Of a stretch of DNA of 41,599 nt, positions 27,557-28,885 are shown in pieces (within the stretch, counting starts at the first letter, position 1; each line of letters begins with the position of its first letter). The stretch is from contig JAPLXK010000005.1 of the NCBI GenBank assembly GCA_026396095.1, positions 1 through 41,599 of the forward strand, read 5' to 3'. Source of the stretch: Candidatus Nealsonbacteria bacterium (lineage in GTDB: Bacteria > Patescibacteriota > Minisyncoccia > Minisyncoccales > RBG-13-42-11). Made by a program: the position numbers and the translations under genes. The notes below the pieces were generated by a model, which was not told where the DNA came from, searched no databases, and saw only the letters and a list, made by a program, of their open reading frames with translations.

Positions 27557-28885
27557 TTAACGGGGGGGCGGAGTTTCTCTCCAAGTGGGCGAAGAGAAGA
27601 AAACTGAAGAAGTTTTTTTGGTTATAGAACAAGTTTTGCCTCCGACCGTAGTCTCCAGTTTTATAGTATAGCCACCCGGACTGGGTAAATTATAAGTATG
27701 AGTTATAACCAATCCTGAATAGTCATTGGTTCCGTTATTGTCAATATCCCATATCCAAGATTTCGCTCCCGGATCAACATGAAAATCAGTTAAATCGGTA
27801 AATGTCACGGGCTTTCCGACAATAATTTTTAGCGGAAGCCAATCAAAATTAGGAGTAGGATAAGGGTAAGCAATGGTTGTGAAAGAAGGGCCCGTAATCC
27901 AATCAGATTCAACTTGCTGAATTGTATCGTCCCATACTTTTAGTCTCCAATAATACGTAACGCTACCATAGGCAAGATTTTTTGCGACATAAGACCCTCC
28001 TGTATTTGTCGCATGCTCAGATTCTACTGTGCTTGAAAAACCGGAATTTGTAGAGATTTGTATTTCATAAGCGCTTTGATTGTCGCTAGGATTAGCGGCT
28101 ACAAATGTCCATGACAAGCGAACAGGGGGATGAATAGAACTGGGACAATAATCAATTGGATTAGGCCCGCCAACAGTTAAATTACTAGCGCTCGGTTTTG
28201 GGCTAGAGAGCACAATCTTATAGTCTGCTATTGGCTGGCCAGCAGCAGGACAACCTGTTCCTCCCTCTGATTTACCATCACCATTAGTGTCACAATTTTT
28301 ACTGTTAAAACTTAGCCATCCAATTACGGCTGTACTAGGACCAGCATCGTGCCCTCCCCAAGCCCAATTTTTAAATTCCCTACTTATTGAATCCAAAGCT
28401 ACTCCGTAGTTGTTTCCTTTAAAACGTATCCATCCGTCCCAACTTCCCCTGTTCAGATTTAAAGCCCCGCTGCAGCCATTAGAAAAAACCGAACAGGCTC
28501 TTGCCCAGCCTGAAAGTTCATTGGTTGCCGAGCTAAACCTGGCTTCGCAAGGGCCCGCTGGACAGCCGCCCAATTGGGAGTCGTTGAAAGTAATCCAGCC
28601 GATATTTTCAGACCAAGCATAGCCGGAAAGAAGCCCATTCCCCAAATTCAAATCAATATTCACGCCGTAATCAACTGTTCCGCAGGTTCCCGGGTCGCTA
28701 CAATTAAAACTGACCCAACCTATATTTTCAGACCAGGCCCAACCGGAAACATTGTCATTTTTACCTGCTTTTGCCTTGTCAAAAGAAAAAAATGAAAATA
28801 CAAAAAAAAGTATTATTAAAATTAATGCTTTTTTATTATTTTTAATCATTATTTGGAGATTTTTAATTTTATTAAAAATTATCAT
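27557..28885 (-). CDS. Secreted Trp-rich repeat protein with FN3-like and PKD-like domains
   Basis: Signal peptide ending AKA|G, four SG(W/Y)AWSENIGW.SFN-like repeats, FN3-like segment (LSWTF..AYEIQIS..YYWRLKVWD), PKD-like segment (VTFTD..WIWDID..HTY), C-terminal PTWRETPP. Start at 28885 or 28849 is more likely than 28912. Confidence 0.8.
   Translation of the reverse strand: MIIFNKIKNLQIMIKNNKKALILIILFFVFSFFSFDKAKAGKNDNVSGWAWSENIGWVSFNCSDPGTCGTVDYGVNIDLNLGNGLLSGYAWSENIGWITFNDSQLGGCPAGPCEARFSSATNELSGWARACSVFSNGCSGALNLNRGSWDGWIRFKGNNYGVALDSISREFKNWAWGGHDAGPSTAVIGWLSFNSKNCDTNGDGKSEGGTGCPAAGQPIADYKIVLSSPKPSASNLTVGGPNPIDYCPSSIHPPVRLSWTFVAANPSDNQSAYEIQISTNSGFSSTVESEHATNTGGSYVAKNLAYGSVTYYWRLKVWDDTIQQVESDWITGPSFTTIAYPYPTPNFDWLPLKIIVGKPVTFTDLTDFHVDPGAKSWIWDIDNNGTNDYSGLVITHTYNLPSPGGYTIKLETTVGGKTCSITKKTSSVFFSSPTWRETPPPR

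Follow-up and report, generated by a model that had tools for sequence, protein, structure and literature searches.

A Trp-repeat/FN3/PKD protein encoded ahead of the minor pilins in a Patescibacteria type IV pilus operon: a possible non-homologous analogue of PilY1

Proteins of the PilC/PilY1 family (PF05567), described in Neisseria, Kingella, Pseudomonas, Acinetobacter and Myxococcus, are Sec-exported non-pilins that are encoded with minor pilins and carry a variable N-terminal part on a constant C-terminal docking end. Their last ~10 residues form a β-strand on the minor pilin PilX/PilK (PMC13711793, PMC12918778), and in Neisseria and Acinetobacter function depends on the last ~10-12 residues, which are also partly sufficient for it (PMC12918778, 2026). 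These tails contain a conserved W, often followed by R, E and hydrophobic residues (PMC13711793, 2026). In Kingella kingae PilC2, a protein of 1502 residues, W1498 and I1501 constitute the critical pair, which is needed functionally and contacts PilX (PMC13711793). Here we analyzed a 41,599-nucleotide stretch of DNA (hereafter the window) from Candidatus Nealsonbacteria bacterium, a member of the Patescibacteria (GenBank assembly GCA_026396095.1, contig JAPLXK010000005.1), which encodes, directly ahead of a set of minor pilin genes, a secreted protein of 430 amino acids (P0001) that is built differently from PilY1 and ends in a comparable tail.

Patescibacteria, or candidate phyla radiation (CPR), represent a large share of bacterial diversity, and type IV pili (T4P) are their best-supported host-contact organelle. 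To our knowledge, a pilus adhesin of these bacteria is known only for the oral Saccharibacteria, in which it is fused to a pilin. All cultivated Patescibacteria live attached to other microbes, and modular minor pilins of the kind found in Saccharibacteria TM7x have been implicated in host binding by the episymbiont (PMC11623550). TM7x PilX1/PilX2 (PMC11623550) and Streptococcus sanguinis PilB/PilC (PMC9934059) exemplify CPR or monoderm T4P that bear lectin or adhesin modules at the tip; in both cases, the module is fused to the pilin in cis, whereas P0001, with its ordinary signal peptide, would need attachment in trans. In other pili, proteins that are likewise unrelated to PilY1 have been proposed or shown to supply the terminal strand (PMC12918778). 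For MshQ of the Vibrio cholerae MSHA pilus, found by synteny with minor pilin genes, a role as non-homologous strand donor has been proposed; GspK and ComGG provide the tip strand themselves (PMC12918778). Unlike P0001, MshQ (~1200 residues) is encoded after the pilin genes, while CpaL of the Caulobacter Tad pilus resembles a pilin and donates a strand of its own in cis. The FN3-PKD-tail unit described below is absent from both MshQ and CpaL.

The gene of P0001 occupies positions 27557..28849 of the window, on the minus strand like all window features given below, and its stop codon is at 27557-27559. From the first ATG, the open reading frame (ORF) would extend over 27557-28912 and encode 451 amino acids. 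However, the ATG at 28849 fits better with the gene call in the database and with the alignment of homologue N-termini, and the start at 28885 chosen in a first-pass annotation of this DNA, which is the second ATG, is less likely, as is 28912. The complete T4P operon of the window reads pilMNO-pilB-REC-pilT-pilC-pilins-pilD-cassette-H-I-J-K, REC being a CheY-type receiver gene located between pilB and pilT. From the pilD side to the pilin side, the cassette encodes a 108-amino-acid protein with a transmembrane helix and coiled coil, a 362-amino-acid protein that we call WTEP, an S26 signal peptidase and P0001. As the first-pass annotation had stated, a set of four pilin genes of the H-I-J-K type lies directly downstream of P0001: GspH/FimT-like (26972..27541), GspI/PilV-like (26421..26969), GspJ/PilW-like (25817..26401) and PilX/GspK-like (25432..25794). 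No PilY1 gene follows; instead, ligA adjoins the fourth minor pilin gene downstream. Because only 15 nt separate the P0001 stop codon from the ATG of the first minor pilin gene, and no terminator was found in this gap, P0001 is predicted to be cotranscribed with the minor pilins. The 670-kb genome contains a single H-I-J-K set, and P0001 is the only one of its ORFs with the Trp repeats or the tail.

P0001 is a Sec-secreted, two-part protein. A Sec-type signal peptide (28766..28849; KNNKK, a hydrophobic core and an AKA/G site) would be cleaved at AKA|G, and the A-x-A-G consensus is found at the aligned N-termini of 28 homologues. The signal peptide, with its AxA site, is thus of type I; P0001 has no prepilin leader and no N_methyl match. 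The first part of the mature protein is a Trp-repeat β domain (residues 29-218; 28196..28765) composed of four W-rich hairpins and two YGV strands, with the repeats GWAWSENIGWVSFN, GYAWSENIGWITFN, GWARA...WDGWIRF and WAWG...IGWLSFN. The domain shows internal duplication, and the W and G positions of the repeats are invariant in the 28 homologues. Modeled alone with 45 homologues by AlphaFold2 (AF2), it reached a predicted local distance difference test score (pLDDT) of 89 and a predicted template modeling score of 0.85. No significant match to its fold was found in the PDB or in BFVD (best E 0.09, template modeling score ≤ 0.32), and the best PDB resemblance is a weak one to small β-barrels. 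The second part consists of an FN3-like Ig domain (27893..28126; Pfam Ig_Rha78A_N, PF25788, E 1.2e-8), which at 35.5 bits scores above the Pfam cut-off of 27.4, and a PKD domain (27653..27820), which at 20 bits falls below the cut-off of 23.5. Nonetheless, the PKD region is modeled as a confident β-sandwich, and PKD domains (PF18911/PF00801) are annotated in many homologues. The whole-protein model has a pLDDT of 84, and in a Foldseek search it matched only FN3/PKD proteins, including tandem FN3. Two other proteins, P0080 and P0104, lack the C-terminal tail and have two tandem Trp domains, with an Ig-like domain after each. Therefore, the Trp domain also occurs outside the tail-bearing architecture.

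The C-terminal tail SSPTWRETPPPR (27560..27595) ends P0001 in ...PTWRETPPPR and conforms to a family motif that reads (L)P-L-P-x-W-[KRQ]-E-[VI]-x-P-[F]-end. In an alignment of 28 sequences with a mean column identity of 34%, P421, E425 and P428 are invariant, showing that conservation of the tail goes beyond chance. P-x-[WFY]-x-E was found in 69 of the 76 genome-derived homologues, in agreement with the strong conservation expected from the first-pass annotation. Of these 69 sequences, 56 have the W, 54 have K, R or Q at +1, 60 have V or I at +3 and 61 have P at +5. At most 9 residues follow the W in 52 of them, and an extension of 22-52 residues follows the motif in the other 17; since these extensions hold charged residues, they are amphipathic rather than transmembrane. 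The family tail W-[KR]-E-[VI] and the PilC/PilY1 tails are in the same register and at the same distance from the C-terminus, with the W and a hydrophobic residue at +3. The W, usually followed by a basic and then an acidic residue, the hydrophobic residue at +3 and their position within the last ~10 residues are all features described for PilC/PilY1 (PMC13711793, PMC12918778), including the WRE-type terminus to which the first-pass annotation had likened P0001. In one locus (L042, features at 5880-6272 and 2508-3755), the homologue of P0001 lacks the C-terminal motif and the PilX-like pilin ends in ...IEWRRIEW, a single example of what is possibly a strand supplied in cis.

The body of the protein is unrelated to PilY1, as had been claimed: P0001 has no PF05567 match, AF2 models FN3 and PKD domains, and the N-terminal domain is not a propeller. 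In place of the seven-bladed β-propeller of PF05567, P0001 combines an orphan Trp-rich β domain with FN3 and PKD, and its 430 amino acids compare with more than 1000 in PilC/PilY1. No PilY1 was found elsewhere either: PF05567 gave no match in the 670-kb genome (a search of unproven sensitivity, since the control genomes also gave none above the cut-off) and no PilY1-like protein occurs among the nine largest secreted proteins of the genome. In contrast, the argument built on calcium did not survive. The motifs invoked, CDTNGDGKSE, DIDNNGTND and ...PTWRETPPPR, are all in the sequence. However, the first (28265..28294), a genuine Ca-type loop, is part of a Cys-bracketed insertion in the fourth hairpin of the Trp domain, and only 15 of the 76 homologues have the C[DN]x[DN]x[DN]G loop, some of them at a different hairpin; the second (27722-27748) sits at the position of the ordinary PKD signature 'WDFGDG'. 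A conserved DxDxDG-type Ca2+ site, which in PilY1 controls extension and retraction, is therefore not a feature of the family, the only such loop of P0001 being in the N-domain. Because the propeller and a conserved Ca2+ site are absent while the tail and the location with fimU/pilV/pilW/pilX-type pilin genes are both present, P0001 may work like PilY1 without being one.

More than 1500 homologues of P0001 were found, essentially all in Patescibacteria, and they are named simply 'PKD domain-containing protein' in the sources; we found no description of the family in the literature. Neighborhoods were compared in 75 genome loci and occurrence in 121 genomes of the same class. Homologues recur at three positions, all of which are boundaries of the T4P operon. 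The first, between pilD and H-I-J-K, is that of the window and of L010, L018, L027, L028, L049, G374, G301, G312, G401 and G308. The second, after the H-I-J(-K) pilin block, corresponds to the position of pilY1 (L015, L019, L036, G400 and G358), and the third is ahead of pilM/pilB (G383, G356 and the loci in which RNase Y follows). In 24 loci the next gene is that of RNase Y, after which a histidine kinase, REC, pilB and pilC often come. The family gene is usually located upstream of the pilin block, unlike pilY1. When the homologue and a PilW-like gene were on one contig, 15 of 17 pairs lay within 15 kb on the same strand.

Furthermore, the N-terminal part of the family is exchanged at a constant C-terminus. 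Proteins of 616-1500 amino acids that lack the Trp repeat and have TSP1-like, Cys-rich or FN3-array N-modules keep the FN3-PKD-tail unit, and such Trp-less members occupy T4P positions before H-I-J-K (G401 and G308) and after K (G400). The conserved unit that defines the position is therefore the C-terminal half of the family. A thrombospondin-type-1-like WSSWSSWSSCSVSCGGG segment is present in the G308 protein (L102:7999-9939), and FN3 arrays in the G401 protein (L101:5810-7660); both are without Trp repeats, have the same tail and are encoded directly upstream of the minor pilins. In G400, a 514-amino-acid secreted protein with the zinc-metalloprotease motif HEIGHMLGLPH (L108:10287-11831) sits between the PilX-like pilin and a 1176-amino-acid tail-bearing member of the family.

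Trp-bearing members are associated with a separate family of fibre-like secreted proteins. The WTEP protein of the window (29531..30619) has a conserved N-module (...LAWTEPxxxPPGGNVPAPINVG...Q.K.G) located after a signal or anchor helix, and a variable Cys-rich C-terminal part. Throughout the family, an invariant module A-W-T-E-P...PPGGNVPAPINVG...Q.K.G precedes highly variable distal parts (157-1184 amino acids). The genome encodes three paralogues (in the window, at C28:11758-12504 and at C33:9969-10739), and up to 12 were found in class genome G337. A mature WTEP protein would start with W-T-E-P, a loose echo of the P-x-W-x-E-x-x-P tail of P0001. Some WTEP proteins have tail-fibre-like GNVGIGT repeats, and by eye an apparent C-terminus of the intramolecular-chaperone type (L015). 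The N-module profile was found in 43 of the 121 class genomes, namely in 39 of 52 with a Trp domain versus 4 of 69 without (odds ratio 49, p 5e-16, not corrected for phylogeny), and in none of the 11 genomes whose family member is Trp-less. A WTEP gene lies no more than 4 kb upstream in 27 of 40 loci. Because the Trp domain tracks a separate family of fibre proteins, these observations suggest that P0001 is an adaptor rather than a simple adhesin.

Taken from sequence and gene context, these features lead us to favor, tentatively, the reading that P0001 is a non-homologous PilY1 analogue and an optional accessory of the T4P that probably connects fibre adhesins to the pilus tip as an adaptor. 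The FN3-like Ig domain, the PKD domain and the tail would form the docking unit of a large Patescibacteria family. Within the H-I-J-K tip complex, the tail would extend the sheet of the PilX/PilK-like pilin by a β-strand, as PilC/PilY1 tails do in type IVa pili, with minor pilin 4 as the proposed acceptor, and P0001 would ride out on the pilus tip. The Trp-rich domain would be the working end, either binding the host surface itself or, more likely, holding the N-module of a WTEP protein, whose variable distal part would do the binding. The more specific picture of a Patescibacteria host-recognition adaptor, whose FN3-PKD-tail end would plug into the pilus tip by PilY1-like strand augmentation and whose orphan Trp domain would grip the N-module of exchangeable, tail-fibre-like WTEP proteins, so that a pilus could present several alternative receptor-binding fibres, is one we consider unlikely. 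Adaptors of phage tail fibres offer a parallel, with a conserved attachment end and an exchangeable distal end as in WTEP proteins, of which there are three paralogues for a single Trp-domain protein. The analogy is purely architectural; no viral protein matched the Trp domain in sequence or fold (BFVD).

Several observations weigh against a P0001 docked at the pilus tip. Regarding the protein, the residue at +3 in the tail of P0001 itself is Thr, not Val or Ile; and, because the tail is Pro-rich and has a pLDDT of ~79 in the monomer model, it may pack on the PKD domain. Regarding gene order, the minor pilins directly follow the homologue in only 8 of 58 loci, and a T4P gene was present in only 24 of the 51 loci with at least 10 kb of flanking sequence. 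Neisseria and Kingella pilC genes are likewise unlinked to minor pilin genes. Regarding occurrence, PilW-like and PilX-like pilins were each found in 115 of the 121 class genomes and P0001-like proteins in 63; the co-occurrence counts in these genomes ignore shared ancestry. The 58 genomes without a P0001-like protein have the same pilus operon and the same short PilX-like pilin, which argues against a general requirement for pilus assembly or licensing of the tip complex and means that the protein is not a general substitute for PilY1 in CPR. P0001 is thus dispensable in half of the related genomes, unlike PilY1, which is needed for assembly when PilT is present. In 20 cassette-free genomes, the same operon was found as pilB-REC-pilT-pilC-pilin-pilD-(~135-amino-acid gene)-H-I-J-K-ligA, and no other ORF with the tail was found in them. 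Since these genomes keep the operon and the PilX-like pilin, the cassette is an optional insertion. Moreover, neither the length of the PilX-like pilin nor its C-terminal strand R-x-I-E-V-x-Y differs between genomes with and without a P0001 homologue. Accordingly, we rejected a cis/trans complementarity in which a longer or W-x-E-tailed PilX-like pilin would be found where P0001 is absent, L042 being a lone example to the contrary. Given this identical size and strand, the sheet of the PilX-like pilin may be completed by its own last strand, as in GspK of the type II secretion system and ComGG of Com pili, leaving no vacancy for the tail.

The optional cassette could also be explained by a device that is independent of the pilus. 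P0001, WTEP and the transmembrane/coiled-coil protein would then form an envelope fibre or adhesin apparatus, the tail would anchor P0001 to the wall, the S-layer or the fibre, and the link to T4P genes would reflect co-regulation of host contact. We consider this possible but doubtful. It would account for WTEP being the most constant neighbor and co-occurring strongly with the Trp domain, for the roughly half of the loci that lack a T4P gene within 10 kb, and for a cassette that moves as a whole and that the pilus operon can do without. It would also account for WTEP genes that are located away from T4P genes (C28 and C33) or, as in G337, in a genome without detectable H-I-J-K. However, the Trp-less members of G401, G308 and G400 are encoded directly beside H-I-J-K in genomes devoid of WTEP, and therefore the C-terminal module is tied to the pilus locus independently of WTEP. 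The proximity of the family gene to PilW-like genes on shared contigs and the fit of the tail to the PilC/PilY1 docking signature also speak for the pilus-tip adaptor.

That P0001 is an ordinary secreted PKD/FN3 protein, for instance a glycan-binding or matrix protein, whose tail caps the PKD domain and resembles PilY1 by chance, is quite unlikely. The signature shared with PilC/PilY1 is merely W-[KR]-E-[VI], the tail is modeled fairly confidently in the monomer, and PKD and FN3 domains are frequent in surface proteins. Nevertheless, typical PKD domains do not need such an extension, the motif stays at the very C-terminal end in proteins that differ widely in architecture and length, and the enrichment of a single-copy gene at T4P loci far exceeds what genome size would lead one to expect.

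We regard it as very improbable that the tail serves in sorting or processing, like the LPXTG, PEP-CTERM or GlyGly-CTERM signals, and is recognized for cleavage or covalent anchoring by a dedicated enzyme such as, possibly, the adjacent S26 protein. The hydrophobic or amphipathic extensions past the motif in 17 of the 69 tail-bearing homologues and the extra S26 paralogue directly upstream in the window would suit such a role, but the other 52 end shortly after the W, with neither a transmembrane segment nor a basic tail, and the extensions hold charged residues. Furthermore, no sortase, exosortase or archaeosortase (PF04203, PF09721) was found in the genome, the controls being positive, so that the motif, transmembrane helix, basic residues and cognate enzyme typical of such substrates do not come together here. 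Finally, none of the other 75 homologues was found to have an S26 gene next to it; the placement seen here is therefore peculiar to this genome, and we rejected the paralogue as a dedicated signal peptidase.

Expulsion of P0001 as cargo of a type II-like piston, without stable attachment, is scarcely credible despite the location in the operon and the contact that some type II secretion substrates make with the pseudopilus tip without strand complementation (PMC12918778), because an outer membrane is generally considered absent and no secretin gene was seen in the operon of the window, so that a Sec-exported protein needs no second step, and because the conserved terminal tail argues for retention over release.

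If P0001 is indeed a PilY1 analogue, the rule that a C-terminal strand licenses the tip complex would extend to a distant lineage devoid of an outer membrane, and these symbionts may use such proteins to attach host-binding parts to their pili. The FN3-PKD-PxWxE tail would then provide a sequence tag for tip-displayed host-recognition proteins in thousands of uncultured genomes and, together with the WTEP fibre proteins, a pointer to how host range may be varied.

The designation of the four minor pilins as H-I-J-K is based on gene order and N-terminal features, as the GspH and GspI matches are weak and N-terminal. The first three have prepilin leaders. The GspH/FimT-like pilin matches N_methyl and, over its N-terminal part only, GspH (1.4e-6), and the GspI/PilV-like pilin matches GspI (2.9e-5). 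The PilX/GspK-like pilin (120 amino acids) lacks Glu5, has an AFYAADSGAE motif and a tiny β domain with the C-terminal sequence R-x-I-x-L-x-Y. Naming these pilins by homology was attempted and abandoned, since the N-terminal helix was the only part matched in PDB profile searches and in hhalign comparisons with E. coli GspJ and GspK, the match of minor pilin 4 to GspK being weak. Among P0001 and the downstream pilins, only the GspH-like pilin shares the reading frame of P0001, and no locus with all five genes in one frame was found among those examined. Many class genomes have a second, long PilX-like paralogue (400-990 amino acids); these paralogues do not coincide with matches to the P0001 profile and hence offer no Rosetta-stone fusion evidence.

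Within the cassette, the first gene (30656..30982) encodes the 108-amino-acid protein with a transmembrane helix and coiled-coil repeats, and is preceded by the gene of the prepilin peptidase PilD (31050..31916). The S26 signal peptidase I paralogue (28890..29486), directly upstream of P0001, is the second copy in the genome, the other being on C35. In the cassette-free genomes (L081-L100), a conserved ORF of ~132-146 amino acids lies between pilD and the first minor pilin gene.

Beyond the minor pilins, ligA is seemingly split in the window (23346-25294) into a 504-amino-acid ORF (23780-25294) without the C-terminal part and a separate 127-amino-acid BRCT ORF (23346-23729). Relatives have a single ligA of ~680 amino acids at this position, and the split may represent a frameshift, a stop or an assembly error. 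Three tandem major-pilin-like genes (32063-33855) are nearly identical in their N-terminal halves but diverge in the globular parts, and a terminator-like hairpin (32749-32775) follows the middle one. Finally, the genome has a second, smaller T4P locus (C6:329-5413; REC-pilB-pilC), which encodes a 582-amino-acid pilin-like protein with a CarboxypepD_reg-like domain, a modular pilin like Saccharibacteria PilX1/PilX2.

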